From positions 18,187 to 82,186 of IMG/VR virus record IMGVR_UViG_3300035454_001303: DNA of 64,000 nucleotides; one strand, given 5' to 3'. Positions 41,177 through 59,932 of the stretch are shown here, piece by piece. The stretch's first letter is position 1; every line of letters starts with the position of its first letter. The notes under the pieces were generated by a model that was not told the DNA's origin, did no database searches, and saw only the letters and a list, made by a program, of their open reading frames with translations. Source of the DNA: a virus. Lineage: Duplodnaviria > Caudoviricetes. Both the position numbers and the translations under genes were made by a program.

Positions 41177-41770
41177 ATGATTCATATTGATTTTGAGAAG
41201 TTCAACAAAGCGGGCTTGAAGCCAATCCTGGATAAGTTCGAGAAGGCTGCCTTGCCAATTGCCAGCGTGGACGCGGACAATAAGGCAAAGCGCGAATCCG
41301 GCTTTCAGGTAAAGACGGCCATCATCAATTTTGAAAGCGGCCAAAAGTTGCAGGTGAAGGCCAAGGCCGGGGGATCGATCTTTCAGGTGAAGCTGAACAG
41401 CAAGGTCCTCGCCATCAAGTACGTTGACGACCTCGATAAGGCAATTCAGGAGGTCATCGATTATGTCAAGGAAAACGAGAAATCCTACCAAAAACAGAAG
41501 GAAAAGCAGCTTGCCCGGCAGAAGGTGAACGTTCCGAAGATCAAACCGGCAAATGTGTCCGTTTCGGAACAGATCACTCAATTCCAGACAGCCATTGATG
41601 AGACCAAGGCCGCTGATGACTCGCTGAATGAGCAGATCGCGGAAGCCGAAAACTCGAAAACCGAAAAAAGCACTGTCGTAACGACTCTCGAGACGGAGCT
41701 GAGCGGTCTGGTTGCGACGGGCGAGAATCTTCAGGCCGAATATGATCAATTGAAGGAGGTGGCAGCATGA
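41177..41770 (+). CDS. hdf: Hdf-like antirestriction/head protein
   Basis: IDFEKFNKAGLK...VKTA....GQ.L......G.I..VKLN; directly upstream of darA. Confidence 0.8.
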   Translation: MIHIDFEKFNKAGLKPILDKFEKAALPIASVDADNKAKRESGFQVKTAIINFESGQKLQVKAKAGGSIFQVKLNSKVLAIKYVDDLDKAIQEVIDYVKENEKSYQKQKEKQLARQKVNVPKIKPANVSVSEQITQFQTAIDETKAADDSLNEQIAEAENSKTEKSTVVTTLETELSGLVATGENLQAEYDQLKEVAA

Positions 41771-43911
41771 ATCCACTGACGGAAGGAAAAAGAATCAAGC
41801 TGGGTTATGACTACTTCGCCACGGGTTTTTCGGGGATTCAGCTTTCGGAAGCATATTACAGGCTGATTGCCGACAAGCAGCAAGAACGCCTCCTTTTCGA
41901 GACGGCGACCATTGACGAGGTTGACGAGGCTTATAACCCCTGTGACGAAAACGACCGGATGACGACCGAAGAACTTGTTTTAGAGGCTATCCGGATTCAG
42001 CGTTTCAATCGCACAGAATCCAAGATGACCGCCCTTGTGCGCGTCTTCAATGGGTATTTGAAGGAAAAGAACATTGAGGCCATGGCGCCGGTCATCGGAA
42101 TGCCGAAGAAATCGGGCCTCTTTGCGACCGTGACCGTGCAGATTCCTTTCAGCGACGGGCAGGTGGTAAGCATTATTTTCCACAGCCCCGACAACAACAA
42201 GATGAAGATCGCGGCGGATGATGAAATCATCGCTTTTCGGTGGCTCTTGAACAAGCGGGACATCACCCATGTGGTTTCTCCGGAAAACGATGCCGAAGTC
42301 AGCCTTCAGGAAATCGGGAAGCGAACGGCCCAGTTGGTTGAAAAGAACAGCGCCCGGTTCCAGGTCATGCAGAAGGAGCTTGTGGCGCAACGGAAGACAC
42401 TTGAAGAATTGAAGACTCAGGCCGATGAGGGGGTGAAGCATCACGATGAACTCATGGCCAAGCTGAAGGAGGGGCAGGATGCCATTGAAGCGATGGATAC
42501 GAAAATCGCCAACCTCCGCAGTCAGATTGAGAAGCAGAAGGCTTTCAATGACGACCTTCAAGGAAAAGTTGACGCTCTGAAGGCGAAGCAGGCCGGGAAT
42601 GACGGCAAGGCGACCGGGGGCGAGACCCCGAAAACCGAAGCGGAAATGAAGGCAGAACAAGAACGGACGGCCTATGAAGAGAAGCGGGCGGCACTGGGAA
42701 GTGAATTGACCGGGCGCGGATTCATAGATAACGGCATGGGCGGTGTCTGGAATAAAGAGGGATTCGGATATGTCCAGGCCAGTGGCGTGGATGGATACAG
42801 CATCGCGGTAGGTTTGGCCGATGGCAGCAAGAAGACGTTCTCTTCGGCCACCGTTGCCGGTTTCGACAAGCAGGCGACCAAGGCCCTGTCCATGATCGAC
42901 AAGAAGCTCAAAGCGGCTGAGATCAAGATTGACCCTGCCGTCTCAGCCCTTGATGCTACGAACGGCTTTGCGGAATTCCTCATGAAGCAGGACGAAGGCC
43001 ATGTCGAAGGGTACAGCCCGAAAGAAAGCGTTCTCAATATTGATGCGAGCGCCAAAAGCGAGGGCCTTGATGCGAAATGGTCTGAAGGGGATGATGGCGG
43101 AATGCCCGTTGCAGTCGGAACTTTCACCATCGCGGGAGGCAACCAGATCGGTGGCGTGCGGATCAGCCCGGACGGGAAGGCAATATTCTTCCTGAACGGT
43201 GAGAGATTCAGGGGTGATTACTACTTCGCAAGCGCCGACAACGAGACCCAGGACGCGGCAATGAAGGAACTCGCCGTCATTATCAAAGCAGCGAAAGAGA
43301 AGGAAGAGAGGGCCAAGCAGGTGGATGAAACAAACCGTCTTATTGAAGTCGGGAAAAATGCGGTACCGGGAGTTCGCCTTCAGGATGCGGAGGAAGCCGG
43401 GAAGCTATGGGAGATGAAAGGACGCGGCGAGTTGTCCGAGGAAGACTGGGGCAAATATGTCGAAGACCTTAAGGCGTCGAACAAGATTGCGAAATCCAAC
43501 GGGCCTCAAGCCCTCATTGGCTCAACTATGACCTCTGACGACGAAAAACGCATTCTTGCCGAGCTTGCCAACCTTGGAGAAGAGGAATTGACGCGCAGGC
43601 ATGAGGAAATTCGGGCCTATATGGAAGGTCCAGACTTCGAGGATCAAGACCCCGATTACAAGAAGTCCCTCCAAAACACCGAGTTCCTGCTGTTCACGGC
43701 AAAGAGCAACGTTCCGGATGAACCAGTTGCCGTGACCGTTCTCAACGACATCCTTGCCGGAAAATATGACGGCGACTCCACGAAGCTGGGAGAGGCCCTT
43801 GACCAGGCGGCTTCCGACCTGGAGAAGGATGGGAAGGCGGAACAATATGATGCTCTTCTGAATCAAGCAGCGGACTATCTGACGGAAATTCTGAAAAAGG
43901 AGGCGGCGTAA
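41767..43911 (+). CDS. darA: DarA (defence against restriction A)-like protein
   Basis: IPFSDGQVVSIIFHSPD...AF.WLLNKRDITH.V...EKNSARF; C-terminal LLNQAADYLTEIL. Confidence 0.88.
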   Translation: MNPLTEGKRIKLGYDYFATGFSGIQLSEAYYRLIADKQQERLLFETATIDEVDEAYNPCDENDRMTTEELVLEAIRIQRFNRTESKMTALVRVFNGYLKEKNIEAMAPVIGMPKKSGLFATVTVQIPFSDGQVVSIIFHSPDNNKMKIAADDEIIAFRWLLNKRDITHVVSPENDAEVSLQEIGKRTAQLVEKNSARFQVMQKELVAQRKTLEELKTQADEGVKHHDELMAKLKEGQDAIEAMDTKIANLRSQIEKQKAFNDDLQGKVDALKAKQAGNDGKATGGETPKTEAEMKAEQERTAYEEKRAALGSELTGRGFIDNGMGGVWNKEGFGYVQASGVDGYSIAVGLADGSKKTFSSATVAGFDKQATKALSMIDKKLKAAEIKIDPAVSALDATNGFAEFLMKQDEGHVEGYSPKESVLNIDASAKSEGLDAKWSEGDDGGMPVAVGTFTIAGGNQIGGVRISPDGKAIFFLNGERFRGDYYFASADNETQDAAMKELAVIIKAAKEKEERAKQVDETNRLIEVGKNAVPGVRLQDAEEAGKLWEMKGRGELSEEDWGKYVEDLKASNKIAKSNGPQALIGSTMTSDDEKRILAELANLGEEELTRRHEEIRAYMEGPDFEDQDPDYKKSLQNTEFLLFTAKSNVPDEPVAVTVLNDILAGKYDGDSTKLGEALDQAASDLEKDGKAEQYDALLNQAADYLTEILKKEAA

Positions 43912-44916
43912 ATGGCTCTATCATTCTCCGAAAAGCGATCCCTGCAGAAGGTGATCGCCACGAACCTTGCCAGCCTTCAGGCGGGCAACCTGTCCTTCCA
44001 GGACAAGCGGAAGTTTCAAAAAGAGATTCAGGACGCCTTTGCCAGACTGAAGGAGGCCGTTGAACTGAAGCCCGAGGCACAGAACCAAAAGCTCGCCGAT
44101 CTGATTGCCGGGAAATACAACAACGAGCCTCCCGAGGGATTTCTGAAGGTACTGAAGGAGATCGTTGAAGAGATCAACGACATTGAGCCGGTGAAGCCGC
44201 CCACGATTGCCTATATCGAAGTCAATCAGGACAAAGTGAATTCGATCATGGAAAGCGCCCTGGGTGAGGTATTTGGGAAACTGTGGGATAAAACGAAGGG
44301 ATTCCCTATTCCGATCATCGGAACATCCTCTTCGCAGCAAGCCACCAACGACGCCGTCAGGGTCAAGCCGCAGGACGGCGACTACGGGCCTCCAAAAAAA
44401 ATCAGTATCGACATCGATGACGATTTCTACGGCCCTACTTCTTTTCGTGCCGTGATCAGGGCCATCGAAGAGGCCCGGGCGGGAGACACGATTGAAATCA
44501 AGCTCAACTCCAACGGCGGAGATACCCAGGCGGCGCAAGCCATTTACGTGGCGCTCCTGAAAACGCTGGCGAAAACGAAAGCGATCATCATCAACGCCTA
44601 TTCTGCGGGGAGCATCGTCGCAATGGCCTGTGATGAGATCGAACCGACGCCCTTCTGTACCATGATGATTCACAACGCATCGACATTCAGTGGCGGGAAG
44701 CTCGGGGATCTGGCAGGGAAAGCGGCATTCCTGAATGATTACTTCGGGGAATGGTTCCAACAGCTTTACGCGGGGTTCCTTACCGAGGAAGAGCTGAAAG
44801 ACATCATCAAGGGCCAGGATTTCTGGTTGAAAGAACCTCAGATCAGGGAACGCCTGAAGAACTGGAAGCCGATCCGCCAAAGACTCCAAGAAAATGGAAC
44901 CATAAAGGCGGCCTGA
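43912..44916 (+). CDS. ddrA: DdrA-like N-domain fused to a ClpP-type serine protease
   Basis: N-part KLADLIAGKY....EGFL..L; C-part LNSNGG, AYSAGS, MMIHNAS, QDFWL (Ser-His-Asp). Confidence 0.75.
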   Translation: MALSFSEKRSLQKVIATNLASLQAGNLSFQDKRKFQKEIQDAFARLKEAVELKPEAQNQKLADLIAGKYNNEPPEGFLKVLKEIVEEINDIEPVKPPTIAYIEVNQDKVNSIMESALGEVFGKLWDKTKGFPIPIIGTSSSQQATNDAVRVKPQDGDYGPPKKISIDIDDDFYGPTSFRAVIRAIEEARAGDTIEIKLNSNGGDTQAAQAIYVALLKTLAKTKAIIINAYSAGSIVAMACDEIEPTPFCTMMIHNASTFSGGKLGDLAGKAAFLNDYFGEWFQQLYAGFLTEEELKDIIKGQDFWLKEPQIRERLKNWKPIRQRLQENGTIKAA

Positions 44917-44918
44917 AG

Positions 44919-47012
44919 ATGCCCATTCCGCTCATAAAGAAACTCGCCGAAGAAAATGGCATTGACCTTCCGGAGGCCGAAAAGCGCTGGGAGAAGGCAA
45001 AGAAAATTGCCGAGGAACAGGCTGGTCTTTCCGAAGCCGATGGAGAGGACTACTGGAAGTACGTTGTTGGCGTTTTCAAGAAGTCCATGGGTGTCGGTGA
45101 GGACAATGTTTTGGAAAGCGCAGACGTGCAGCCCTGGGACAAGGAAAGGTTGGCTGTGGCCTATCCCCAAAGAGTCAGGGAGGCAAGATCGTTTTCCGAT
45201 ATCCTTGTGATCTTCTCCGCCCTCTTTCCTTATGCCGTCGATAGCCGACTTTGGGAAGGAGAATATGACGCGGCCAAGAAGTTCCGGGTTCTTTTTGAAG
45301 AGTTCCAGACGGAAACCGATATGGAACTCAAATATGAGATTGCCCAGGAAATGGGGGATCTGGCGAACGCCAACAGGTTCAAGAGCGCTTTTGAGACGAT
45401 GGCCGGTCCGGGGCTTCGGTCCAGCGATCTGGTTATGTTCTCGAATTCGTCCATCGGCGGCTTTCTCCTAAAGAGGAACTGCGAAGACGGCGAACGAATG
45501 GCGGAGTCCATCATCCCCGGTTATGGGGAGAAGTTGAAGACCCGGAACGACATTCAGACGAGCATAGACCAGATCCAGAAGGAATATGATTTTTTGGTTG
45601 CCGACCAGGTGAAAAAGAAAAAAGACGAGATGGACGCCATCCGCAAGGATTGCGGTGCCCTCGATCTACAGACCAGGTCTGCGGCCATGAATGAAGAGCA
45701 TTGGAAATGGGTTGGACAGCATTCCAAAAACATACCTCCGTATGATTCGGAGGAATATGCCAAATGGAAGCAGGAACTTGATGACTACAACAAGGGGTAT
45801 GAAAAGCAGTTCCGTGCATTGATGGACAAATCCTATGAGCTGGAAGATCTTCACGTGAAGCCGGTCCGGGATAAGTGGAATGCCGAACTGAAGGAAGCGG
45901 GAGACAGGAAGGAAAAAGAAATTCATGTCCTGAAGATGGCCCAGCAAGAAATTGATGACATGGTGGGCGGGGCCATTATTGCCAAGATCATAGAAGTATC
46001 ACCCGTGTCGAAGGAAGAGGCCGATCAATGGGCAAAAACCCAAAGGATAAGCAAGTCGGCAATTCTTCGGCTGAAGAAGCAGGGCTATGAAGAGGGAGAT
46101 TTCCGCGAGCACATGGCTGAATTTTATCGGCTGACTGGCGGAAGGGTCGGAAAGGCTTTCATCGAAACCAAGGGAGACAAGAGGGCGAAAGCTGCCTTTT
46201 GGGATGGGACAATTTACATCGACGGGCGGTTCAAGAAACGAACCCTTTTCCACGAAATGGGTCATCTGCTTGAAAGGGAACCCAAACTCGAATCCATGGC
46301 CGAAGCCTTTCGCGATGGCAGGGCCAAGAAAGAAAGCGGAACCAGAACACTGCGAAGCATCACGAAGAATTCCGGCTATCGGTCAGACGAGATCGCTTAT
46401 ACCGATGACTTCTTCGATGCCTATATCGGAAAAGTTTATAGGTACAAGGCCACTGAGGTTCTTTCGATGGGAATGCAGATGTTTGGGGACCCCGGCGATG
46501 CCGCTTTTCTGGCCGGGCGTGATCCGCAGATGTTCAATATGATGGTGGGATTCATGGCTTCCAAGCCGACCGTCCGGGAACTATCAAAGAAAGAGAAGAT
46601 CCAGGAAGTAGCGGCGGATACGATGAATGAACGGGACACCCTTGAAAAATTCTATCAAGTGCTGGCGCGAAAGGCCAAGGATGATTCCTTTTGGGAAGGA
46701 AAGGGCTCGTTGATTTCGAGCCTCGAAGGATACGGCAGAGGGAAAGGAAGCGGAAAAACGATGGCCCTCTATTATTATCCGGGAGACCCGCAAGGACCTG
46801 GTTCGTATGCCCAGTCGAACTTTTTCAAGACCAGGCAGGCCGCTCGTAACTTTGCTTATCTGTATCTCTTGTATGTCCAAAAGGGGATCATAAGCGACCG
46901 AAACGAGGCATCCGTTCTGAGCTACCAGCTCGTCGCGTGCGCGCAGAGGAAGACAATGCCTCCGAAATTGAAAATAGACGATCTGCCAACGTTTATCGAG
47001 GACCTTAAATGA
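44919..47012 (+). CDS. Polyvalent virion protein with zincin metallopeptidase (DdrB C-half-like)
   Basis: Start ATG 44919 just after the ddrA stop; FYRLTGG, LFHEMGHLLE, ATEVLSMGMQ. Confidence 0.75.
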   Translation: MPIPLIKKLAEENGIDLPEAEKRWEKAKKIAEEQAGLSEADGEDYWKYVVGVFKKSMGVGEDNVLESADVQPWDKERLAVAYPQRVREARSFSDILVIFSALFPYAVDSRLWEGEYDAAKKFRVLFEEFQTETDMELKYEIAQEMGDLANANRFKSAFETMAGPGLRSSDLVMFSNSSIGGFLLKRNCEDGERMAESIIPGYGEKLKTRNDIQTSIDQIQKEYDFLVADQVKKKKDEMDAIRKDCGALDLQTRSAAMNEEHWKWVGQHSKNIPPYDSEEYAKWKQELDDYNKGYEKQFRALMDKSYELEDLHVKPVRDKWNAELKEAGDRKEKEIHVLKMAQQEIDDMVGGAIIAKIIEVSPVSKEEADQWAKTQRISKSAILRLKKQGYEEGDFREHMAEFYRLTGGRVGKAFIETKGDKRAKAAFWDGTIYIDGRFKKRTLFHEMGHLLEREPKLESMAEAFRDGRAKKESGTRTLRSITKNSGYRSDEIAYTDDFFDAYIGKVYRYKATEVLSMGMQMFGDPGDAAFLAGRDPQMFNMMVGFMASKPTVRELSKKEKIQEVAADTMNERDTLEKFYQVLARKAKDDSFWEGKGSLISSLEGYGRGKGSGKTMALYYYPGDPQGPGSYAQSNFFKTRQAARNFAYLYLLYVQKGIISDRNEASVLSYQLVACAQRKTMPPKLKIDDLPTFIEDLK

Positions 47013-50000
47013 ATGAAGATTTTAAATATCCGGTAACGCCGTATGTCTTCGATATAGAGACATCCACGGGCGATTTGCGGATTGAAATAGAGCCAACGGA
47101 GTTTGACGCTTCGTCATTATTCAAGATCAAGACCTATGGAGGGAACGAAGCGCCCGCGCTGGAGCTGAAGAGGTATTTCAACGATTTCGGCTTCGGCATG
47201 AGAGGGCATAGAATAGACCTGGAAGGCGATACAGCCTTCCCAACTGACATTTATCATGTGTTGACCATGAGCCAGACCTATCTGCAGGAAGGAAAGCAAA
47301 GGAGCATTCTTGATTTTCAGGTATCGGGATTTATTCCACCTGAAGGATATGCCGACTTGCTTCCCGATTCGGACGATGAAGAGGCGGCTGTGCTCGAATC
47401 CGCCCGAATCGACAGGGAGGCCCATAAAGCGGCGGCATCTCCAAAGAATAACCTCCCTGAGCCCACGGATGCCCAAAAAGAAGCCGGAAATTACCAAAAA
47501 GGCCATGTGAAAATTCTCGGCCTGGATATCGCCATTGAGAATCCTGCCGGGTCCGAACGATCAGGCGTCGACCGGGATGGAAAGAGATGGTCATCGCGCC
47601 TGAATCACCATTACGGCTACATCAAGGGAACAAAGGGGCGCGACAAAGACCACCTTGATGTTTTCCTTGGGCCGGATCCTGAAGATGAGGACAAGGTATT
47701 CATCGTCAACCAGACAGATCCGGCAACGGGTGCCTTCGATGAGCATAAGATCATGATGGGGTTCTCTTCGGAAGAAGAGGCCCGGGCCGCTTACCTGTCT
47801 AATTACGATGAGGAGTGGCAGGGACTTGGATCAATCTGCACCCTTTTCATTGATGAATTCAAGGATTGGCTGAAGAACGGAGACACGACGGTCCCCGTTG
47901 AACGTGGGGAGTCTGGATCGTATAAGCAGGACCCCTCATGGGTTGGAGTTGATCTGGACGGCACCCTTGCGCACTATGATAGCTGGGTTGGCGATGACCA
48001 TATCGGCGAGCCTATTCCCCTCATGATGACCTTTGTCAGGCATCTACTCAAAGAAGGGAAGCGGGTAAAAATCTTTACCGCTCGCGCCTCCGACCCGGAG
48101 AAAGTTGTTCCTGTGAAGGAATGGCTTGAAAAGCATGGCCTTGGAGATCTCGAAGTGACGAACATCAAAGATCACAATATGACCATGCTGTACGACGACC
48201 GAGCGGCAAAGGTCATTGCCAATATGGGGGTGATTCTCGAGAAGGCGCGCGAACAAGCGATCCTTGAACGAGGGGAAGATTTCCGGGGAGCGGTCCAAGG
48301 AGCACTTTCCTTTGATGATATCGAGAGCGTATTTGCGGCGACATTTGGCCCCATCGTGGTCAAGAGGTTCCTCTTCGGGGAAATTTCGGAGCTGGAAAAC
48401 CTGATAAGGTCAATGCGTGCCAAGATTGCGAAGGTTGCGGGCGGCGATGTCATTGAATCAGGCGAAAACGGGATGGAAATGGGCGAAAAAACAACCGCCT
48501 ATCTGAACGACAACACGCCAGTTGAACTTCAATATGCTGTGATCGAAGCGGATCGGCTGATTACATCTCATACGGACGAAATGTCCCTCAATGCTGACTT
48601 CTCCCAAGATCTTCAACCCCGTGACCGCTCCCGGGAGGGCATGAAGTTCCAGGTTGAACAGATGGCCGGAAAGCTCAATCCGGAACGGCTGGGAGAGTCC
48701 ACAAGCGTTTCGACGGGCGCTCCGATCATAGGTCGGGATCTGACAGTTGAATCGGGAAACGGAAGAACGATAGCCATACGAAAAGCCTATGCCATGGGGG
48801 ACAAGGGGCAGGAATATAAGCAATGGCTCTTGGATAATTCCGAACGGTTCGGGATTTCCTTTATAGCTGTGGGAAAGATGGATAGGCCAGTTCTTGTCCG
48901 CATACGCCTCACGGAGATTGACCGTGCCGAATTTGCGCGGAAAGCGAATGAAGACGAGATCGCGCAAATGGCACCTTCCGAGCTGGCAAGGGCCGATGCC
49001 GCCAAATTGACAGATGACGACATCGCTCTCTTTCAGCCGTCCGAGGATGGGAATATTGCCGCCACGACAAACAGGGCCTTCATTACCAGGTTCTTTGAGA
49101 AGATGGGCGCCACCGCGTCGACCGGGTACATGACGAAGGATGGAGGATACACAAAGCAGCTCGTTGACCGGATTCAAGCCGCTATATTCCAGAAGGCGTA
49201 CCAGGATGACAACCTTTTGGCCCTCATGGCCGAAGAATCGGACCCTAAAATCAAGAACATCTTGAGCGCAATGACCATTGCGGCAGGCGAGTTTTCGAGA
49301 GCCAAGGCGATTGACCCCACCCTTATGGGGATAGACATCCCCCGGCATGTTATCGAAGCGGCGAAGCTGATCAAAAAGTCGCGAGAAGATAACCAGGCCA
49401 TCGAAGAGGCTCTTGCGCAGGGCGGCCTATTTGAAGACATTTCCGAAGACACGAAGAGCATCACCCTGTTTATCGACAAGAACATCAGGTCTGCAAGACG
49501 GATCGGGGCAGTTCTCAAAGAGGCTGCACGAATCCTGCGGAAGATCCTGATTGACGAGAAAGAGCCGAAGCTGATCGACACCGGGGCCGAACTTCCTACT
49601 CCCGCAAAGATCATTGACCTTGCTATTGAGAAAGAAAAGTCCATGAACGCAGGCGGCGGGAATCTCTTTGAGGGGGCCGCTGAATTCGACTGGAGAGGGG
49701 CTGTCAACGGCGCGCTGTCGATTGAGGAAATCTTCTATATTTTTGAAAGGATATTCCCTCTGGCAACGAAAATGGTGGAAGTTCATAAGGAGCCGTGGGA
49801 AATGACGATAGCTGAATTTTGGGAAAAGCATCCCGAAATTCTATCGGAACCTCAAGCCTACGCCATCCATTTCACGGACATCCAGGACGCGATAAAGGCA
49901 GGGAAGTTCATCCCCATAGAAGTCCTGAATGAATATCGGAAAATTCTTCCATCCAAAGCACAGGTCATAAGGGCTGTACGCAACTTCGCCGGCAAGCTCA

Positions 50001-50536
50001 TAGGAAGAATTTCAGAACCTTATGACGGGACCGAGGAAGGCATGTATCGCGCCGGCCAAAGATTAGAAGAGAGAATGTGGCAGGAATTCCCCGATGCGTC
50101 CGGGATCAACAGCATGACGGGGGCCACCGATCTTGACGGAAACCCGAAGTGGGCCATATCGCCGAACCTTAAGCATATCGCTGAATTGGGAACGGACCAG
50201 GCAAGTTACATTTGGGGCGACATAGACGCTTTCAAGCGCGGGGAAACGCGAAAGGCAAAGCAGATCCAAAATGACGTGAAAGAACAGACAATCGTTGATT
50301 TCGATAATGTCTGGAAGCTGCCCCTGGATACCGTAGTGCAGATTGAATACCAGGGGAAACCTTGGCGAAAGGCGCTTCTGTCCGATATGGAGGCCGGCGT
50401 TATCTATTATGAGAACTTGAGGGGCGGTGGATGGCAGAAAAAGCCCATAGCTCCGCAGCACTTTAGACAATTTATCAGCATGACAAAAGAAAAAGACTAC
50501 AGAATTATTGTATTAGATAAAGGGGGTTTTAAATGA
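47009..50536 (+). CDS. ddrB: Polyvalent protein: InPase domain, HAD phosphatase, DdrB-type ParB domain and others
   Basis: EAGNYQKGH...YGYIKGT.G.DKDHLDVF...FDEHK.M.G; GVDLDGTLA...FTAR; LQPRDRSR...GAPII...VESGNGRT. Confidence 0.8.
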   Translation: MNEDFKYPVTPYVFDIETSTGDLRIEIEPTEFDASSLFKIKTYGGNEAPALELKRYFNDFGFGMRGHRIDLEGDTAFPTDIYHVLTMSQTYLQEGKQRSILDFQVSGFIPPEGYADLLPDSDDEEAAVLESARIDREAHKAAASPKNNLPEPTDAQKEAGNYQKGHVKILGLDIAIENPAGSERSGVDRDGKRWSSRLNHHYGYIKGTKGRDKDHLDVFLGPDPEDEDKVFIVNQTDPATGAFDEHKIMMGFSSEEEARAAYLSNYDEEWQGLGSICTLFIDEFKDWLKNGDTTVPVERGESGSYKQDPSWVGVDLDGTLAHYDSWVGDDHIGEPIPLMMTFVRHLLKEGKRVKIFTARASDPEKVVPVKEWLEKHGLGDLEVTNIKDHNMTMLYDDRAAKVIANMGVILEKAREQAILERGEDFRGAVQGALSFDDIESVFAATFGPIVVKRFLFGEISELENLIRSMRAKIAKVAGGDVIESGENGMEMGEKTTAYLNDNTPVELQYAVIEADRLITSHTDEMSLNADFSQDLQPRDRSREGMKFQVEQMAGKLNPERLGESTSVSTGAPIIGRDLTVESGNGRTIAIRKAYAMGDKGQEYKQWLLDNSERFGISFIAVGKMDRPVLVRIRLTEIDRAEFARKANEDEIAQMAPSELARADAAKLTDDDIALFQPSEDGNIAATTNRAFITRFFEKMGATASTGYMTKDGGYTKQLVDRIQAAIFQKAYQDDNLLALMAEESDPKIKNILSAMTIAAGEFSRAKAIDPTLMGIDIPRHVIEAAKLIKKSREDNQAIEEALAQGGLFEDISEDTKSITLFIDKNIRSARRIGAVLKEAARILRKILIDEKEPKLIDTGAELPTPAKIIDLAIEKEKSMNAGGGNLFEGAAEFDWRGAVNGALSIEEIFYIFERIFPLATKMVEVHKEPWEMTIAEFWEKHPEILSEPQAYAIHFTDIQDAIKAGKFIPIEVLNEYRKILPSKAQVIRAVRNFAGKLIGRISEPYDGTEEGMYRAGQRLEERMWQEFPDASGINSMTGATDLDGNPKWAISPNLKHIAELGTDQASYIWGDIDAFKRGETRKAKQIQNDVKEQTIVDFDNVWKLPLDTVVQIEYQGKPWRKALLSDMEAGVIYYENLRGGGWQKKPIAPQHFRQFISMTKEKDYRIIVLDKGGFK

Positions 50537-53500
50537 TTCTTGAAAGGGCGGTCCCGGATTGGAAATCCAAAGTTCAGGCGGCAAGTAACTTCTTCGACAT
50601 CGCGACGGTAATCAAGACCCTTTTCGATCTGCAAACGATCCCTGGCCAGGAGCCGCCGAAAGATCCGAACGACTACAAAGATGAAGGATCTGACTATGGG
50701 TTGAAGGTCAAAGGCATCAAGGCCCGCGAGAGGATCAACGCGCAAGCGCGGGAGGTTATAACACGCGTGCAGGACCCGGGCGACCTGACAGATAAGGACC
50801 GGGAAGTTCTGAAGCAATATTCCGGGCGCGGTGGCCTTACCGAAAATTCCCAGTTTGAATACTACACGCCAACCCACGTGGCAGAGGGTCTATGGGACGG
50901 TATCATGGCCAATGGATTCCAGAACGGGAACGTTCTTGATCCTTGCACGGGTGCCGGTGTGTTCTCGGCGACGAAACCAAAAGGGGCGATCATAACCGGC
51001 GCGGATATCGATCCGGTCGGATCGAAGGTGTCCCAGCTTCTGAATCCCGGAGACCTGATCAAGAATCAGTCATTTGAAAAAACAGTCATGGAGACCCCGG
51101 ATGATTCCTTTGACGCTGTTGTCGGGAATGTTCCGTTTGGAAATGCGCGCGGGGCGAGCGCCCATGAAGACCAGGACTATAAAGATGAAAAGCGGATTGA
51201 GCGCTACTTCATTCTCAGGGCCTTGGACAAGGTAAAGCCTGGCGGTCTATGCTGCTTTGTCGTTCCCATCAACATCGTGGGCGCCAAAGGAGGGCAGTGG
51301 GAAAAGTTCAGGATTGCCGTCAGCAAGAAGGCGGAATTTCTTGGAGCCCATAAGCTCCCATCGAAGACATTCAGCACACAGGGGACTGATACCGTTGTTG
51401 ATATTGTCGTCTTCAGGAAGCATCCGAGAGAGTTTCTGGATAAGGCAGACACCATTCCATTCAATACCTTGAAGGCCGCGAAGGTCGTATGGGACGAATT
51501 CATCAGCGGTCAATACTGGATCGGCGAAGGCCGCCCCTTCATCATGGGGAAATGGGTCCCGAAGATCGAAGGCGACCGCTGGAGCCGTGAAGTTGTGGAT
51601 GGAGACATCGACAATGCCAGCCTGAAAGCGCGCCTTGCTCAGCGCTTCGATTCTCGTATTGATTGGGACCTGCTGGAGACGGCGGAGCCCATCATACGGA
51701 ATTATGCGGAGGGAGACCGAAAAATCATCAATGGTGTCGAATATGAGATGAAAAGCGGGCAGTGGTCTCGCGTCATCAAGATCGAGGACACTTCGTTGCC
51801 CATCGACAAGGAAAGGTATGGAGCGGGCACGCTTGATGAGTTGAAAGCAGCCCTGTCATCTTCAAAGGGGGCGTTGGTCCTGTCGGCAAAGCAAGTTTTT
51901 GCCGTCTTCAAGGCATTCCCTGAATTTCTGAGCCCCTTGCAGAAAGCATCCATTGAATTCGCCATGAGCCAGCCCAAGGAAGAATATCAGGAACAGATCT
52001 TTCGGGGATCGATCATCGGGGGGATGATTGCCCGATATCAGAATGCCATGAACGACGGGACCACCGAAGACGTGGACCGCCTTGAGCTGCAAGAGCTTGT
52101 CGCCAAAGAGATCGACACCTATGGACACCCGAAAAATAACAAAGGCTTACTCATAACCGGCGAATCCTCGAAGATGTTTGGCCTCTTCAGGAATGCCGTC
52201 GATGAGAAGGGTAAGTTTTCTGACCTGTTATCCGGCACCATAGACGGATCGGGAGGCTCCCTGGAATATGATTCCACAAACCTTCAGGCCATTGTTGAAC
52301 ACCTCTTCGTTCGCGAGGGGATTCAGGAGATAGAGCTTGAGGATGTGCAAAAGCTCTATACCGGCAAACGAGAAATCAAGTCCCTCTCGGATCTTGCCGA
52401 TGATGACGCCCTTGCAATAACGCCGGATGGACTTATTGTCCCGATGGGGCGCTACACGGTCGGCGATATCTATCCGAAAGTTCAGGCCATGAATGACGCC
52501 CTGGCCGTGGAGACCGACGAGAAGCTCAAAGACAAGTATATGAGGCAGATTGATGAGATTATGCGCCGGCGTAAAACGACCAAGCCGGAAGACATCTCTT
52601 TCGACATGCGCCAGAAATGGTACAGCAAAAAGTATGTTGTCGATTTCCTGCGTGAAAACGGATACCCGCGTCTTTCCTATGGAGTTCTTGAAGAGGCCGT
52701 TCGGGAGGACCCGTACAGCGGGAAGCAGTTCACCACCAGCGTTCTGAAAGAGGATTACGAAAACCCATTCGGGCGGTTCTACGGCATTGACGACAGCAAG
52801 GGCGGGTTCCCAAAGCAATTCCTGAAGTATCTCAATGGCGAAAACGTGACATCTTCGGGGGAAGATGCCCAAGAGCGGATCAAGGAATATAAGGACCGTT
52901 GCCGCGTTCTCGAAGAGCAATTCAATGTCTGGATGCAACAGCACACCGAAATCAATGAGATCACGGAGCAATACAACCGGAAGTTCAACGGGTTTACGGC
53001 ATTCGACTATGAGGATGCGGACCTGAAATTGAAGGACGTTTCTCCCCAGGTAAGGCTTCATGGATACCAAAACGCGGCAGTTCGTCGCCTATCCGAAGAG
53101 GGGCGCGGAATCCTGGCCCACAATGTCGGCCTCGGGAAGACCTATTCGGCTCTCGGGCTATATGCCTACAATAGAAAGCTCGGCAGATCAAAGAAGACGT
53201 GTATCACGGTTCCAAAATCAGTGCTGGGGAACTGGTATCATGAATCGAAGAAATTCCTTGGAACCCATGACAATGTTCTTTTTGTCGGCTTTGAACCGAA
53301 GGTCGGTAAGGATGGCCAGATCGAACAGGAAGTTGTCAAGGACGAAAAGGGAAGCCCGAAGCTCAACAAATATACCGGGCAATTCGAGTACCAGGACGTG
53401 CTTGTGGAACGAAACAGCAAGGAAGATGTTTGGGAGGCCATGTGGAAGATCCCCCAGGCTAACTTCTCCCTGGTTGTGATGACGAAGGAAAAATTCGGCA

Positions 53501-56500
53501 TGATCCCCATGAGGCCGGATAGTAAGCGTTCCTATGCCGACAAGATGGTTCAGCGGTCATTGATCAGCGAGAAGATGCACGCTGCGGCAATAGCGGAGAA
53601 TGCACAGCCCGCCGAAAACGAAAAAGGAAGGCAGGCCGGCAAGGTTTCCTATGATGAAGATGTCGCCAAGACTCGATTGGAACAACAATTCTCTGACGAG
53701 GGGACAGCCAAGAAAGACGAACTTCCTTATTTTGAGGATATGGGTTTTACAGACGTTATCATTGACGAATGCCACGAATTCAAGAACAACATGCTTGGTG
53801 GCGAGCATTATCAAGATGTGGCCTATCTCCCCACGGCACCGCCTGCAAAGCGCGCTCTTGATATGACCATGAAGATGGCCTACCTGCGGGACTCCAATAA
53901 TGGACGAGGGGCCTACATGCTTTCCGCGACACCGGTCACGAACAGTCCCTTCGAGATCTTCAACATGTTGTCCTATGTTTGCCCGCTGGAAGAGTTCGAG
54001 AGATACGGAATCTATACGCCCGATGACTTCATCCGGACATTCGGAAATATCACGAGCGTTGACAAGATGATGGTTGACGGCAGCATCAAGTCGAAGGACG
54101 GCCTTACCGGGTTCAAGATGCTGGATGGCCTGCGGACCATGTTCCATAAATACGTGAACATGAAAAGCGCCGAAGACTTCCCGGATCAGATCAAGCTCCC
54201 GCCGCACGAGGAAGTCAATCTCGATATCGAACTGACCGAAGAACAGAAACGGGCCTATGAGAGCTTGCGCGAACGAGCGAAGGAGGCGGCAAAGCCCCCA
54301 CAGAAGGGCGAGAAAAAAGAGAGCATGTTTTCCGTCATCCGCGATATGGATCGGGTGACTACCGATATGGACCTCTACAACAAGACGATGACCTTCATTT
54401 TCAGAGGATCGGACAAGGAAAACGTGGACGCCCTGGTGAAGAGCCTTCCCAAGACAATCAAGGTCAAGAGGGTCCTGGACGATGAGGAAATGGAGGCCCT
54501 TGGGCTTGATCCCGAAATGAATAAGGGCCGGGCTCAGGAAATCACCATAAAGCTCGAAATTTCATCCCGGATGGAAAACGGAAACTATGTCGCGATCTTC
54601 CCGAAGGAATACGAAAACATGGTTGTGGACCGGATCCCGCAAAACAACATTGCGATAGAGAACGTTTCGCACCCCCTCATGCCGAAATATGCCCGGCTGA
54701 TTGAAAACCTTCGATCCGATCTGGAGGCGGACGGGAAGCAGATCATCTTCACTGAAGAAAAATCCCAGCATCAGAAGATTCTCCGTCTGGTCGTGCACCA
54801 CATTCCGACCATTGCCAAGCTGATCGGTATTATCAATGCTGAAGAGGCGAAGGGCGAAGAGCTTCAGAAAATTTCCGACGAGTACAATTCGGGGAACCTG
54901 AAGTTCGTGATCTGCAACAAAAAGGCCGAGGTTGGCGTAAACCTTCAGAAGGGCACCACAGCCATTCACCACTTAACCCTTCCTTGGACGCCGGCGAGCA
55001 TTCAACAGAGGAACGGGAGAGGCGTCCGGCAGGGAAATACGGCACCCATGATCCACGTCTATTACTACTGCGGGAAGGGGTCCTTCGATGCCTACCGTCT
55101 TGAAATATTGAAGGCGAAATCGAACTGGATGAGCGACCTTTTCAACGGCACCGAAGCGACGGCAGAGAATGCGAATGCCCTCAGTCAAGATGAAATGATG
55201 GATATGTTGGAAGCCGATCCGGAGGCCGCAAAGAAACGCCGCCTTGAAAGGCTGGCGGCACGGCAGGCGGAAGAAGCGGAGAAAGAGCGCCGCCGCCTGG
55301 CCAATCAACTACAGATGCTTTCACAGGCAAGCGCCGACCTCGCTGGCCTTGATGCGGAGAAAGAGGCAGAGCGCGAGCGGTTGCAGAAGCGTATCCCGGA
55401 GCTTGAAGCTGAAATCAAGAGGCTCCAGGAACGTGGTTTGGCTACCGAAGGGGATGAGCGGGCACGGCTTGGGAGCCAGATCATTGATAAGCAACAAACT
55501 CTGAAGAATTTCAATGCAAAGCTCGGTTCATTGGATCAGACCTTTGAGGACAAAAGGGTAAGATTGACATCGGTGGTCAAACAGACATCGGGCCTACTGA
55601 AACAGAAAGCTAAAAAGGGGCAGCTCCCATTCAACGAATCATTGATCGAAAAACCGGAGAATGCCTGCGTTACGCTGAGCGGCAAGGTGGTAGCCGTTGA
55701 TGACTGCTATGAGTACAAGGATGATTACGAGCAAGGGATCATTAAAGTCGTTGCCGTCGATCCGGTACGGAGGTCTTTCAAATATGAGGATATCACCGGG
55801 CGAATCGGGACAAGAGACCTTGAGCGCGCGCCCGATAACTGGGGCTGGTATCTGGCAAGCAGCTTATCCAGGATGGAAGAGAAGGGCTTGAAGAAGGTCT
55901 CGTATTCCGAAAAAGAGCTGAATCTCAAAAGGGCTCTTTCGGAAGAACATGACTATGAATCCCTTGTTGACGGGAAACTAGACAAAGAGACGTTCCTTGA
56001 TCACAGGAATGATATTCGCTGGAGTGTTTATAGTCAGTACGTCGTCAGGGGACAGGATGGTAAGATTGCTGTCGTGAGCGGATCTGACTTCAGGAATTCC
56101 GAGAAAGGTCTCTCCGCAGCGATCATCTACCCGGAAAAGGGCAACGAAGACTTCAGGAAAGGCGTGTGTGAAGCCTATCTTGCCGCCCGGCGTGATGGCG
56201 ACACATATTCCATGCGGAACATAATGGAAAGCCTCTTCGGGAAAAATTATGACGAAGTGGCCCTCGGGTACGGGAAGAAGGCTACGGATTCCGAAGTCCT
56301 GGAGGTGTGCGCCAAGGCGTGGGCTGATTATACAAAGGATCAGCAATATGGCTATGCCAGCATGGACGAACTTGTGAACGATCTTGCCGATGGAAAGACG
56401 CGCCTCGGTTACATTCTTAAAGAAGTGGCAAACCTGGCAGGCTCGCGAACCCAGGACCTTGGGGACAACATCAGCGAAATCGGGAATATCGTCCATCAGT

Positions 56501-56904
56501 ACACACTTGATCTTCAGACCAGCCTCGAAAGAGCTATCCAAGTCAAGAAGGAAGAGAAAGAGAGGTCTGCACAGGAAGCGCTGAAAGCAGATCCGAGATT
56601 CAAGGATGTCCCCCAGGAAGCCAGAGAGGCTTTTGCGAAGTTGGGGATCACAGTTAAAACGAACATGACAGGAATGGCGTTACCGGGTTTCAAGGGGCGG
56701 CGGGGGGCCGTCTTGGAGCCTTTTGCACGTTGGTTTTTCCAGGACAGAAACGGTAAGAGCGGTGTTCTTTATAGAACGAAAGACATTTTGAAAGCGCGGT
56801 ATGGGGCTCAGTTCTTTTCGGATGCGGGGGAAGCATTTGAAGGGGCATGGTGGCACGTGCCTTCGAGCACAGACTTGAAGGCAATCTACGAGTTAATCGC
56901 TTAG
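50533..56904 (+). CDS. darB: DarB-like methyltransferase plus SNF2 helicase
   Basis: VLDPCTGAGVF, VVGNVPFG; NVGLGKT, DECHEFKN, SATPVTNS, QQRNGRGVRQGN. Confidence 0.92.
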   Translation: MILERAVPDWKSKVQAASNFFDIATVIKTLFDLQTIPGQEPPKDPNDYKDEGSDYGLKVKGIKARERINAQAREVITRVQDPGDLTDKDREVLKQYSGRGGLTENSQFEYYTPTHVAEGLWDGIMANGFQNGNVLDPCTGAGVFSATKPKGAIITGADIDPVGSKVSQLLNPGDLIKNQSFEKTVMETPDDSFDAVVGNVPFGNARGASAHEDQDYKDEKRIERYFILRALDKVKPGGLCCFVVPINIVGAKGGQWEKFRIAVSKKAEFLGAHKLPSKTFSTQGTDTVVDIVVFRKHPREFLDKADTIPFNTLKAAKVVWDEFISGQYWIGEGRPFIMGKWVPKIEGDRWSREVVDGDIDNASLKARLAQRFDSRIDWDLLETAEPIIRNYAEGDRKIINGVEYEMKSGQWSRVIKIEDTSLPIDKERYGAGTLDELKAALSSSKGALVLSAKQVFAVFKAFPEFLSPLQKASIEFAMSQPKEEYQEQIFRGSIIGGMIARYQNAMNDGTTEDVDRLELQELVAKEIDTYGHPKNNKGLLITGESSKMFGLFRNAVDEKGKFSDLLSGTIDGSGGSLEYDSTNLQAIVEHLFVREGIQEIELEDVQKLYTGKREIKSLSDLADDDALAITPDGLIVPMGRYTVGDIYPKVQAMNDALAVETDEKLKDKYMRQIDEIMRRRKTTKPEDISFDMRQKWYSKKYVVDFLRENGYPRLSYGVLEEAVREDPYSGKQFTTSVLKEDYENPFGRFYGIDDSKGGFPKQFLKYLNGENVTSSGEDAQERIKEYKDRCRVLEEQFNVWMQQHTEINEITEQYNRKFNGFTAFDYEDADLKLKDVSPQVRLHGYQNAAVRRLSEEGRGILAHNVGLGKTYSALGLYAYNRKLGRSKKTCITVPKSVLGNWYHESKKFLGTHDNVLFVGFEPKVGKDGQIEQEVVKDEKGSPKLNKYTGQFEYQDVLVERNSKEDVWEAMWKIPQANFSLVVMTKEKFGMIPMRPDSKRSYADKMVQRSLISEKMHAAAIAENAQPAENEKGRQAGKVSYDEDVAKTRLEQQFSDEGTAKKDELPYFEDMGFTDVIIDECHEFKNNMLGGEHYQDVAYLPTAPPAKRALDMTMKMAYLRDSNNGRGAYMLSATPVTNSPFEIFNMLSYVCPLEEFERYGIYTPDDFIRTFGNITSVDKMMVDGSIKSKDGLTGFKMLDGLRTMFHKYVNMKSAEDFPDQIKLPPHEEVNLDIELTEEQKRAYESLRERAKEAAKPPQKGEKKESMFSVIRDMDRVTTDMDLYNKTMTFIFRGSDKENVDALVKSLPKTIKVKRVLDDEEMEALGLDPEMNKGRAQEITIKLEISSRMENGNYVAIFPKEYENMVVDRIPQNNIAIENVSHPLMPKYARLIENLRSDLEADGKQIIFTEEKSQHQKILRLVVHHIPTIAKLIGIINAEEAKGEELQKISDEYNSGNLKFVICNKKAEVGVNLQKGTTAIHHLTLPWTPASIQQRNGRGVRQGNTAPMIHVYYYCGKGSFDAYRLEILKAKSNWMSDLFNGTEATAENANALSQDEMMDMLEADPEAAKKRRLERLAARQAEEAEKERRRLANQLQMLSQASADLAGLDAEKEAERERLQKRIPELEAEIKRLQERGLATEGDERARLGSQIIDKQQTLKNFNAKLGSLDQTFEDKRVRLTSVVKQTSGLLKQKAKKGQLPFNESLIEKPENACVTLSGKVVAVDDCYEYKDDYEQGIIKVVAVDPVRRSFKYEDITGRIGTRDLERAPDNWGWYLASSLSRMEEKGLKKVSYSEKELNLKRALSEEHDYESLVDGKLDKETFLDHRNDIRWSVYSQYVVRGQDGKIAVVSGSDFRNSEKGLSAAIIYPEKGNEDFRKGVCEAYLAARRDGDTYSMRNIMESLFGKNYDEVALGYGKKATDSEVLEVCAKAWADYTKDQQYGYASMDELVNDLADGKTRLGYILKEVANLAGSRTQDLGDNISEIGNIVHQYTLDLQTSLERAIQVKKEEKERSAQEALKADPRFKDVPQEAREAFAKLGITVKTNMTGMALPGFKGRRGAVLEPFARWFFQDRNGKSGVLYRTKDILKARYGAQFFSDAGEAFEGAWWHVPSSTDLKAIYELIA

Positions 56905-56920
56905 AAGGAGGATAACAAAA

Positions 56921-57616
56921 ATGCTCAGAAAAACGGTAAAATTTGAAAACTACAGCGCGTCCGGATTGCATTACATCGGCTATGGGATGAATTTCAATGT
57001 TCCGGGCGGAAGTATCGGAGATGAGGGGTTGTCCGTGAATCTCCCCCTGGACAACGCGGCAACTATCAAGGCGGCTGTGCTTGCGAAACGTCCGGCCATG
57101 AAAATGACCGATGGCGAAACCTTTGAGGACGGCATATATCCCGACTATATGCCCTTCCAGAAGGACAACTATGCCGGGGCTGCTGCACCGGATGCCGACA
57201 ATGACGAAACGGAAGGCTATTCCGTTGGCTCTGTGTGGATCGACACAACGTCAACGCCTCATGAGATTTACCGCTGTGTCGATGCAGCCGAGGGTGCTGC
57301 GGTATGGCTGAACACCTCACTGGAACAGAGTGAGCTGGGAACTATGGCCCTTCAGAACGCCAACAATGTCACCACGGACATTAACCTTGCGTCATCGAAG
57401 GTTTTGAAGGTAAATGGCGTGCAGGTCGTCGGTGCTCCGGGCCTTGCCGTGACTGATGCGAGCGTGGTGACTGGAACGGCCACGAATGGAGGCTATGGAT
57501 TCGTGTCAGCCGAGGAAATGAATAGCTTCATCAGCGGCGTCAATGGTATGAAGGATGCCGTGAATGCGGTTATTTCCAGACTGGAAGGGCACGGGCTCGT
57601 CGCTGCCGGCGCGTAA
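56921..57616 (+). CDS. Putative head-fibre/decoration protein
   Basis: Fibre-type motifs AP...DETEGYSVGSVW, LGTMALQNANNV, LKVNGVQVVG, C-terminal ..RLEGHGL. Confidence 0.45.
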   Translation: MLRKTVKFENYSASGLHYIGYGMNFNVPGGSIGDEGLSVNLPLDNAATIKAAVLAKRPAMKMTDGETFEDGIYPDYMPFQKDNYAGAAAPDADNDETEGYSVGSVWIDTTSTPHEIYRCVDAAEGAAVWLNTSLEQSELGTMALQNANNVTTDINLASSKVLKVNGVQVVGAPGLAVTDASVVTGTATNGGYGFVSAEEMNSFISGVNGMKDAVNAVISRLEGHGLVAAGA

Positions 57617-57641
57617 GCCAAAATCCATGAAGTTTGATTTC

Positions 57642-57676
57642 GGTGGCCGTCGTCAAAAGGCGGCGGCCATCTTTTT
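57642..57676 (+). terminator. Rho-independent terminator
   Basis: GGTGGCCGTCGTC-AAAA-GGCGGCGGCCATC then TTTTT. Confidence 0.75.
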
Positions 57677-58171: not shown

Positions 58172-58177
58172 GCTAAG

Positions 58178-58258: not shown

Positions 58259-59932
58259 ATGGAAGAGAAAAAACCATCTTTTTGGCAGAGGCTATTTCCC
58301 GGCTTTTTGGGCAAGAATCAGGGGGCGAATGCAAACGTCTCCATCCCCCCAATTGCGAACTATGAAGACTTCGTAGCCGATGCTCTCATGAATGGCGCCC
58401 CCCAGGGGGAGGCGAACGGAGAAGACTCTTATCAACTCACAGAACTTCCCAGCAGCCGCTTGTTAAAGTATAAGATTTTCCGGGTAATGGCCGATGATCC
58501 GACCATTGACTCTGCCCTGAAGATGCACATCTCCCATGCCCTCTCTGCGAAGTCAGATACGGGCGAAATCGTATCCATCGAATCCACGTCGGACAAAGAC
58601 GACCCAATCACCATTGATCTCCGCAACACCTTCAAGGAGATCGTCAACAAGAATATTCAGTTTTGGGCCTATAACGCGGCTTTGAATGGGATCTGGTTCG
58701 CCCGCGTATACGGGACGCCTCGTAAAGGCGTGGAACTGGTAAGGTCTGATTACTATACACACCCTCAATTCGTCAGAATTTATGAGCAAGCTGGCCAGGT
58801 GGCCGGTTATACAGCCGCACATCAGAATCCGTTGCAAAACACAGGGTACATCTCATTGATGGAACCTTGGAAATTTGTTGCGTTCAGGATTCCTATATGG
58901 AAGGCGGAAAGCGAGATCGAGCCCCCACGTCTTGATGGGTCAATTTTTGATATTTCCAATGATGACTTCCGTGCGGAAAGCATTATTGAAAGCCAGAATT
59001 ATGGAACATCGCTGATCGAGACTGCCTTTGCTCCCTGGATGGACCTGCAGGAAGCTATCTTGTCTCTCAATATGTCTCGCAAAAACGCCGCCCGCCTGGA
59101 ACGGCTGATCGGTGTCAATACCGGAAGGCTATCCCCGCAACGCGCCTCTCAATACCTCAATACCGTTTCCAATCAGATTTTGAAGGTGAACCAGGCGAAT
59201 GCAAAGCAATCCCTGCGGCGGGGGTATGTACAAACGGTCATAAACCATCTCATCCCCATCTTTGGAGATGGGAAAGGGCGCCTTGATATCGCATCAATGG
59301 AGGGGAATCCGAATCTTGACGGTCTGGCAGATGTTGATTTTCACGTGAAGCGCCTCGGCTCTGCGCTGGGAGTTGACCCGGCCCTTTTAGGCTTCGGGGA
59401 AATGCTCTCTGGCGGTCTTGGGGACGGCGGTTTCTTCCGGATCTCAGTCCTTGCCGCTATCAAAGCAAATATGCTCAGGCTGGCCGTTCTTTCCGGCCTG
59501 GAAAATCTCTTCGACATTCACGTGGCATACAAATACGGGAAGGTATTCCTTCCGGGAGAAAAGCCGTGGCGCGTCGTCTTTAATTCAGTTTCTTCGGCCC
59601 TTGAACGCGAGGAACGCGAGAACCTGGAAGGCCGCGTGACCTTTGCCACAATGATGGGGCAATTGATTCAGATCATTGATGCCGAGTTCACGGCAGTGGA
59701 CCGGAATGCTCTGGCCAATTACATGTTCACGGATATCATGCGGATAGATGAAGAGAAGTTTCGGAAGATGTTCCCAGGGAAAATTACCGGACCGGCAGCG
59801 GAACAACAAACCGGTCCTGACGGTGAGCCAATTGCCACATCGGACGATGAAGGGCTATTAACCGAATCGGCCATGAAACGCATGAAAGGCGCTATTGATC
59901 GATACGTCGAAGGGCTCTACGCCCGAAAGTAA
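58259..59932 (+). CDS. prt: Portal protein, P1 Prt-like
   Basis: MADDPTIDSALKMHISHAL, YGTSLIETAF.PW, LGSALGVDPALLGF..MLSGGLGDGGF. Confidence 0.88.
   Translation: MEEKKPSFWQRLFPGFLGKNQGANANVSIPPIANYEDFVADALMNGAPQGEANGEDSYQLTELPSSRLLKYKIFRVMADDPTIDSALKMHISHALSAKSDTGEIVSIESTSDKDDPITIDLRNTFKEIVNKNIQFWAYNAALNGIWFARVYGTPRKGVELVRSDYYTHPQFVRIYEQAGQVAGYTAAHQNPLQNTGYISLMEPWKFVAFRIPIWKAESEIEPPRLDGSIFDISNDDFRAESIIESQNYGTSLIETAFAPWMDLQEAILSLNMSRKNAARLERLIGVNTGRLSPQRASQYLNTVSNQILKVNQANAKQSLRRGYVQTVINHLIPIFGDGKGRLDIASMEGNPNLDGLADVDFHVKRLGSALGVDPALLGFGEMLSGGLGDGGFFRISVLAAIKANMLRLAVLSGLENLFDIHVAYKYGKVFLPGEKPWRVVFNSVSSALEREERENLEGRVTFATMMGQLIQIIDAEFTAVDRNALANYMFTDIMRIDEEKFRKMFPGKITGPAAEQQTGPDGEPIATSDDEGLLTESAMKRMKGAIDRYVEGLYARK

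Follow-up and report, generated by a model that had tools for sequence, protein, structure and literature searches.

This text concerns a short peptide, here called the tag, that recurs four times in three adjacent large genes of a 64,000-nucleotide (nt) stretch of viral DNA (the window; positions 18,187 to 82,186 of IMG/VR record IMGVR_UViG_3300035454_001303, part of an 82-kb virus record with a completeness estimate of 91%). Judged by gene content and order, region 41177-60967 (+ strand) of the window comes from a P1-like myophage and comprises its dar (defence against restriction) operon and then head genes, with Hdf, DarA, a fusion of DdrA-like and ClpP-like domains, a 697-amino-acid (aa) protein (g697), the polyvalent protein g1175, DarB, a 231-aa protein, the portal protein and a homolog of the P1 prohead protease Pro following one another in that order (Table 1). 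The traits of a P1-type Dar operon are found, with Hdf and DarA ahead of the cargo genes, DdrA, the domains of DdrB and a DarB of full architecture, and the trait of the polyvalent proteins described by Iyer is present as well, with InPase, HAD-like and ddrB-ParB domains combined in g1175 between darA and the portal gene.

The tags lie in g697, g1175 (two copies) and DarB. Along g1175, an N-terminal module of about 130 aa is followed by the site VLE130/S (a slash marks the putative cut in all such sites), the InPase and a HAD-like domain, the sites ILE/K and ILE/R, a tag, a DdrB-type ParB domain (residues 505-841, 40% identity to P1 DdrB), the site LFE/G, a second tag and a 260-aa C-terminal module. 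In g697, residues 358-529 resemble P1 DdrB residues 787-971 (27% identity, E=1e-9), with an HExxH motif at residue 445; as these alignments have it, the counterpart of P1 DdrB is split and reordered here, with the ParB domain in g1175 and the metallopeptidase in the upstream g697. An earlier note on this DNA, made from the letters alone, had begun this first cargo gene at 44751 (753 aa), a start that is not retained: in loci L010 and L177 the homologs begin at the Met whose codon lies at 44919, which gives a probable length of 697 aa. The open reading frame (ORF) from 44751 overlaps the preceding gene by 165 nt, and the Met at 44919 stands 3 nt past the upstream stop.

The four motif peptides translate as the earlier note had quoted them, and the upstream sites that it had named (VLE/S, ILE/R, LFE/G and ILE/R) are all present. 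The repeat is real, but the 18 aa first given for it are too few, as the similarity runs upstream to an Asp/aromatic/basic triplet for a length of about 26-33 aa. In the six-frame translation of the window the regular expression of that note had no further match, which is no test because the expression was built from the same four copies. In leave-one-out searches of the 854 six-frame segments of the window with hidden Markov models (HMMs), the left-out copy was the best non-training match for three of the copies (independent E-value, iE, 0.013 in g697, 2e-5 for the first copy in g1175 and 1e-4 for the second), and the DarB copy, at 4.6 bits, fell below significance; the 37 bits that the latter reaches against the enriched profile are circular, since it belongs to the training set of that profile. 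Against the enriched profile, orthologous DarB N-termini from further phages reached 21-26 bits before any had joined it, and tags orthologous to the DarB copy are found in loci L092-L100, L173 and L177. That the four copies are alike by chance, an explanation for which only the DarB copy, not significant when left out, could speak, is hardly credible given the E-values of the other three and the dozens of conserved copies in other phages with the same flanking site. The DNA of the four copies shares little beyond codon constraint, so the repeat did not arise by recent duplication.

Table 1. Tag copies, candidate protease sites and genes in the window (nucleotide positions of the window; E-site, hydrophobic-hydrophobic-Glu site)
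Feature	Position	Strand	Evidence or remark
Tag copy 1, in g697	45156..45248 (core 45174-45227)	+	33.5 bits, enriched profile (training member); leave-one-out 11.2 bits
Tag copy 2, before g1175 ParB module	48272..48367 (core 48293-48346)	+	51.8 bits, enriched profile (training member); leave-one-out 20.0 bits
Tag copy 3, before g1175 C-terminal module	49679..49774 (core 49703-49756)	+	42.2 bits, enriched profile (training member); leave-one-out 17.6 bits
Tag copy 4, DarB N-terminus	50548..50643 (core 50572-50625)	+	37 bits, enriched profile (training member); leave-one-out 4.6 bits
E-site VLE/S before tag 1	45108..45116	+	
Two E-sites before tag 2 (ILE/K 48233-48241; ILE/R 48260-48268)	48233..48268	+	Both kept in orthologs
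E-site LFE/G before tag 3	49664..49672	+	
DarB start MILE/R	50533-50544 (ILE codons 50536-50544)	+	N-terminal tag next
Candidate sites in DarA	LFE45/T 41893-41901; VLE73/A 41977-41985	+	
Capsid protein site ILE122/A	23010-23018	+	Position of mapped P1 gp23 cut
Junction IME114/S between DdrA-like and ClpP-like domains	44245-44253	+	No tag
Hdf-like, 197 aa	41177..41770	+	First gene of the dar operon; phrog_1620 E=7e-33; weak Pfam DarA_N match
DarA-like internal head protein, 714 aa	41767..43911	+	Pfam DarA_N E=3e-28; 29% identity to P1 DarA
DdrA-like N-terminal domain with ClpP-like serine protease domain, 334 aa	43912..44916	+	phrog_1855 (E=7e-6) residues 1-106; Pfam CLP_protease residues 183-274
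First cargo gene, g697 (g753 of the earlier note)	44919..47012	+	66-aa helical leader, site, tag, zincin-like metallopeptidase domain
Polyvalent protein g1175	47009..50536	+	Pfam InPase E=1e-58, ddrB-ParB E=2e-35; ~39-40% identity to P1 DdrB N-terminal part
DarB, 2123 aa, methyltransferase and SNF2 helicase	50533..56904	+	Pfam Eco57I, SNF2-rel_dom, Helicase_C; phrog_1685, phrog_11801
231-aa gene directly after darB	56921-57616	+	Position of P1 ulx
Portal protein	58259..59932	+	phrog_1497 E=6e-133; Pfam Portal_T4
Homolog of P1 Pro prohead protease, 340 aa	59945..60967	+	32% identity to P1 Pro, E=1e-44; proposed processing enzyme
Major capsid protein, 541 aa	22653..24278	+	30% identity to P1 gp23, E=6e-83

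Beyond the window, a profile of the four copies recovered about 30 more among 88 polyvalent homologs of g1175, and the consensus after iteration is DW[RK]xAIxxAxSFxDIExVFxxxF. Among 80 viral loci with a DdrB-type ParB domain, the motif occurs at 15 bits or more in only five distinct phages, which are those with the closest DarA and DdrA proteins. An 18-copy profile, for which the window and the fetched loci were the sole sources, matched 35 proteins at E<=1e-3 among 1.84 billion protein representatives. With all sets pooled, 41 proteins had 58 distinct copies between them, each protein one to three, and the domains in these carriers include InPase, ddrB-ParB, LPD3, PBECR1, PBECR3, ART-PolyVal, LPD1, MuF_C, methyltransferase/helicase and RelA_SpoT, so that the varied cargo expected behind the tag is seen in the many unrelated effector domains that follow it. 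The genomic contexts examined (n = 3) were all dar operons, and the parts of the window proteins that carry the tag had no match among Pfam families.

The hydrophobic-hydrophobic-Glu tripeptide is strongly associated with the tag. A [LIVMF][LIVMF]E site stands within 25 residues upstream of 27 of the 34 internal copies, compared with 18.7% for random positions in the same proteins (binomial p=3e-14, with some copies orthologous and hence not fully independent), which is the enrichment behind Glu sites in homologs on which the earlier note had staked its reading. The spacing from Glu to the Trp of the tag is 4-7 residues in most internal copies. So tight a spacing would suit a protease docking element (exosite) that chooses which Glu sites are cut, with loading achieved by other means, as would the tripeptide itself being too common to specify cutting and several diverged phages keeping MILE/R as the opening residues of stand-alone DarB. 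An exosite nevertheless appears unlikely, as some copies at the extreme N-terminus have nothing to remove (P0008, P0012, P0108, P0116 and P0118), no tag follows the sites in the capsid protein and in DarA, and the positionally equivalent N-terminus of P1 DarB is sufficient for packaging (PMC9024508). The exosite and address roles could coexist if Pro itself were the receptor.

The site resembles those of P1-type head maturation. The only P1 maturation cut mapped by experiment, gp23 MLE120/S (PMC9024508), aligns with ILE122/A of the window capsid protein, and P1 DarA, for which residues 1-69 are unseen in the cryo-EM model (PMC12810830), has LLE68/A where that model begins, a likely cut site that aligns with VLE73/A of the window. 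The hydrophobic-hydrophobic-Glu consensus is thereby common to the cargo junctions and to the gp23- and DarA-homologous positions, a correspondence of motif and not of cleavage. The junctions might instead be cut by a protease borne on the cargo, either the zincin-like metallopeptidase of g697, whose HExxH domain has its homolog in the C-terminal part of P1 DdrB and for which passages of Iyer 2017 (PMC5512222) propose autoproteolysis, or the ClpP-like domain fused to DdrA in the same operon. We regard this as quite unlikely, because the junction consensus is that of the capsid-protein and DarA sites, attributed to Pro in P1, and because most tag-bearing loci have no ClpP-like domain; as a conserved processing enzyme the latter was rejected, being absent from L008, L010, L013 and L019, though present in L177.

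Several further Glu sites of the same type were noted. The Pro homolog has eight hydrophobic-hydrophobic-Glu tripeptides against 2.7 expected, including ILES at residues 26, 164 and 176, and P1 Pro has MFES at the place aligned with ILES of the window Pro; these are candidate self-processing sites. In g1175, VLE/S at residues 128-130 (47390-47398) lies in an acidic linker between the 130-aa N-terminal module and the InPase and has no tag after it. In DarA, LFE45/T and VLE73/A (residues 43-73, 41893-41985) flank a conserved stretch of the form Thr/Ser-hydrophobic-acidic-acidic-hydrophobic-acidic...aromatic with a likeness to the second of the tag helices. The DarA proteins of P1, L171 and L173 have this stretch too, and it may represent a pseudo-tag lost on cutting. 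A second site after tag 2 (VIE/S, g1175 residue 481), which would point to removal of the tag in the manner of T4, was set aside, being absent from orthologs.

The tag is also enriched at the start of proteins. Fourteen of 54 copies in Met-starting proteins begin within the first 30 residues, where 5.6% would be expected (p=1e-6), and, as anticipated for N-terminal tags on separate proteins, copies recur at the extreme N-termini of stand-alone proteins of dar operons. Two such tag-first proteins are encoded directly after hdf-darA-ddrA, the position of ddrB: an ART-PolyVal protein (451 aa) and a 423-aa protein, whose operon further encodes an InPase, with site and tag inside it, and a DarB tagged at its N-terminus. 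No single case is clearer than L013/L014, in which one cargo is seen in two layouts: DarB is here an internal module of a 3891-aa protein with IFE/T and a tag ahead of it, and the distance from this internal tag to the methyltransferase region equals that of the N-terminal tag in stand-alone DarB.

An AlphaFold2 model of g1175 residues 400-950, built from a 14-row alignment, predicts the ParB core confidently (predicted local distance difference test, pLDDT, about 80-90), while both tags appear, at low confidence (pLDDT 35-75), as two short helices with a Gly-Ala-Leu-Ser turn between them (residues 895-900 and 905-915 for tag copy 3) that are not packed on the ParB core. Low confidence and the lack of packing fit with a docking peptide exposed within a linker. 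A structural linker that simply recurs between domains, or a helix for oligomerisation, with no role in targeting or processing, would be short, helical and amphipathic as the tag is, and such helices give spurious profile similarity, as illustrated by the score of 16.5 elsewhere in DarB (see below). We consider this very unlikely in view of the enrichment at the extreme N-termini of stand-alone proteins, the confinement to the cargo of a narrow phage lineage (35 matches/1.84e9, with the examined contexts in dar operons), the unrelated folds that follow the tag and the lack of packing on a neighbouring domain in the model.

A packaging function is known for the position that the tag occupies in DarB. 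The first 30 residues of P1 DarB package a reporter protein and the first 9 do not (Gonzales et al. 2022, PMC9024508), and according to the same authors BLAST gave no consensus among Dar N-termini. Across the loci collected here, DarB N-termini grade from the form of the window to that of P1, always directly before the conserved start of the methyltransferase region. In profile-profile comparison, the non-DarB tags matched the N-termini of nine P1-like DarB proteins with a score of 16.3 (P=8e-4) that none of 300 column shuffles reached, and those of the P1 clade alone with 10.3 (P=0.049). The tags also matched the N-termini of P1-like DdrB proteins, P1 included (21.4, P=3e-5, 0 of 150 column shuffles), which in turn matched those of P1-like DarB (21.2, P=1e-4, 0 of 150). 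When DarB N-termini were compared with the tag, the register was as expected, and the N-terminal segment ranked 1 of 140 along DarB (20.6 in that scan). In P1-like phages, DarB and DdrB likely share a Ser-capped helix at their N-termini, and its homology with the tag is probable, as far as these profiles can tell.

The reading that we favour, and hold to be reasonably probable, is that a cassette of protease site and docking tag loads the Dar cargo and lets Pro separate its modules. Injected cargo would be made as polyvalent proteins, with the cassette at module boundaries and at protein N-termini. The first part of the cassette would be the hydrophobic-hydrophobic-Glu site, with the consensus of a P1-type Pro whose gene is just downstream, and the second, usually 4-7 residues on, a tag of about 26 residues predicted to form two helices (WRxAIx, then the Ser-capped FxDIExVFxxxF). 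The tag would act as a docking peptide that brings cargo into the assembling procapsid, where the most likely dock is the layer of DarA, Hdf and DdrA lining the capsid. Pro, active inside the procapsid, would then cut the exposed junctions and so turn the polyprotein into separate enzymes, several of them with a tag near the new N-terminus, and tagless modules would enter along with the precursor. From the sequences and their arrangement we infer the cutting of the junctions, Pro as the cutter, packaging directed by the tag and the partner that it binds. The interpretation in the earlier note, of polyproteins cut by the head protease into separately tagged enzymes, is supported, with all of its computable predictions borne out.

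A number of observations weigh against this reading. Some tags stand at the far C-terminal end of their protein, with neither a Glu site before them nor cargo beyond (the L019 ORF from 8726, residues 1524-1551 of 1560; P0093, 921-950 of 954; P0014, 1524-1555 of 1560), so the tag is not strictly an N-terminal element and can also serve, or remain as a leftover, at a C-terminal end. Conversely, there are Glu-site junctions without a tag, at g1175 residues 1-130 and 131-420 and between the DdrA-like and ClpP-like domains. Inside the cargo proteins the tripeptide, a common one, occurs 30 times against 24 expected and so shows none of the depletion that selection against stray cuts might leave; sequence alone cannot define cutting at so common a tripeptide, and accessibility or context must add specificity. 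For T4 gp21, specificity beyond the site motif is likewise taken to come from accessibility or context. Because the cut would fall ahead of the tag, the tag would stay on the product, and pieces already in the capsid have no clear need of a tag of their own; possible reasons for retaining it are anchoring to the DarA/Hdf layer, avidity in loading or a history of once stand-alone modules.

Other adverse points concern the connection to P1. The deletions in P1 DarB are untidy, with loss of residues 11-30 tolerated and loss of 16-30 not (PMC9024508), and another region of DarB (columns ~420-465, in nine loci among L105-L137) scored 16.5 against the tag profile. HMMs trained on the four copies, on 31 copies or on P1-like relatives minus the P1 clade all left P1 DarB, DdrB and DarA below significance; with the HMM trained without the P1 clade, the P1 DarB N-terminus was the fourth of 993 scored hits (1,102 six-frame segments) at 5.1 bits, which is not significant. 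The likeness of the tag to the P1 DarB N-terminus that the earlier note had named is upheld by profile-profile comparison and not by HMMs, which miss P1 itself; a match of the tag to P1 made by eye is unsupported at the HMM level. Given the HMM failure and the second DarB region, the tag is connected with moderate strength to the signal tested in P1.

A broader version of the same idea can be put forward only tentatively: the tag may be a general address code of Dar cargo across P1-like phages, with lineage versions that co-evolve with one inner-layer receptor (DarA, Hdf, DdrA or Pro), and the cassette may be the unit by which effectors are inserted or removed and still load, get cut free and inject. 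Within a phage, the DarB and DdrB tags are more alike than in shuffled pairings, with 10 of 5040 permutations reaching the score for seven phages and 3 of 120 for five independent phages. The anchors of this co-variation were picked by eye, a further point on the adverse side, which makes it suggestive only, and a common receptor for the DarB and DdrB tags is to that extent only suggested.

For the surrounding genes, no near-identical DNA was found in phage and plasmid collections, and the nearest relative found is the L177 prophage in a 5.5-Mb chromosome, with identical gene order and all four tags. L177 (6434-7894) has a 486-aa version of the DdrA/ClpP-like protein with an additional middle domain. 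The product of the 231-aa gene after darB showed no similarity to P1 Ulx (pairwise BLASTP only), and its designation as Ulx was dropped; homologs of it are found in the tag-bearing loci L008, L010 and L019. Neither a PDB sequence search with the C-terminal module of g1175 nor a Pfam comparison of the unassigned modules (E<=1) gave anything usable, and the stand-alone homologs of the C-terminal module are four short fragments only. Directly 5' of hdf lies a diversity-generating retroelement (39486-41161) with an Avd-like gene (39486-39851) and a reverse transcriptase (40133-41161), adjoined by tail-fibre-type genes.

The combination of a targeting peptide with prohead protease processing is, as a principle, already known from T4 and P1 DarB. 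T4 prohead protease cuts after Glu at sites of the Leu/Ile-x-Glu type. The P1 DarB capsid-targeting sequence (PMC9024508), defined by deletions and a 30-residue fusion only, shares with the tag its protein family, operon and position directly before the methyltransferase region, whereas the tag of the window differs in its sharp conservation, an added Asp-Trp-Arg helix, several copies per protein and a coupled upstream Glu site. In the T4 system of Mullaney and Black, which consists of the IPIII capsid-targeting sequence and the gp21 prohead protease (as described in PMC9024508), a short N-terminal peptide likewise sends cargo to the prohead, a protease processes it and the injected cargo counters host defence. 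The T4 IPIII tag, however, is upstream of the cut and removed, while in the window the cut would be upstream of the tag; further, the T4 tags are single and N-terminal, those of the window are repeated inside polyproteins, and there is no sequence similarity between them.

With the polyvalent proteins of Iyer 2017 (PMC5512222), g1175 and its relatives share the typical features of InPase, ddrB-ParB, LPD3, PBECR and ART-PolyVal domains in one chain among late genes. Passages of that work propose domain release by built-in metallopeptidase domains, and its passages on cleavage, linkers, packaging and the capsid describe no junction motif or packaging tag. Three papers on the giant phages phiKZ and SPN3US (PMC5694885, PMC7411985, PMC10052503) describe many ejected head-internal proteins cut by one prohead protease and discuss capsid targeting, for a phage lineage and proteins unrelated to those of the window. 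Full-text searches on polyvalent proteins, Dar packaging, capsid targeting and prohead proteases gave no account of the motif.

The head of P1 carries about six anti-restriction proteins, and the tag, as the probable address label for loading, would provide a first sequence consensus for a signal previously shown only by one P1 experiment. A sharp consensus across unrelated cargo, joined to a protease-type site, opens cargo recognition to direct experiment, which is of relevance to research on phage assembly and counter-defence, and, if the proposed role is true, the tag (~26 residues) would be a short transferable element for loading chosen proteins into P1-type capsids, with a use in laboratory strains. 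For the polyvalent proteins themselves, processing at these junctions would be a concrete alternative to the autoproteolysis model of how they are dismantled, and modules that come with a cut site and an address label of their own would suggest why polyvalent domains shuffle freely.

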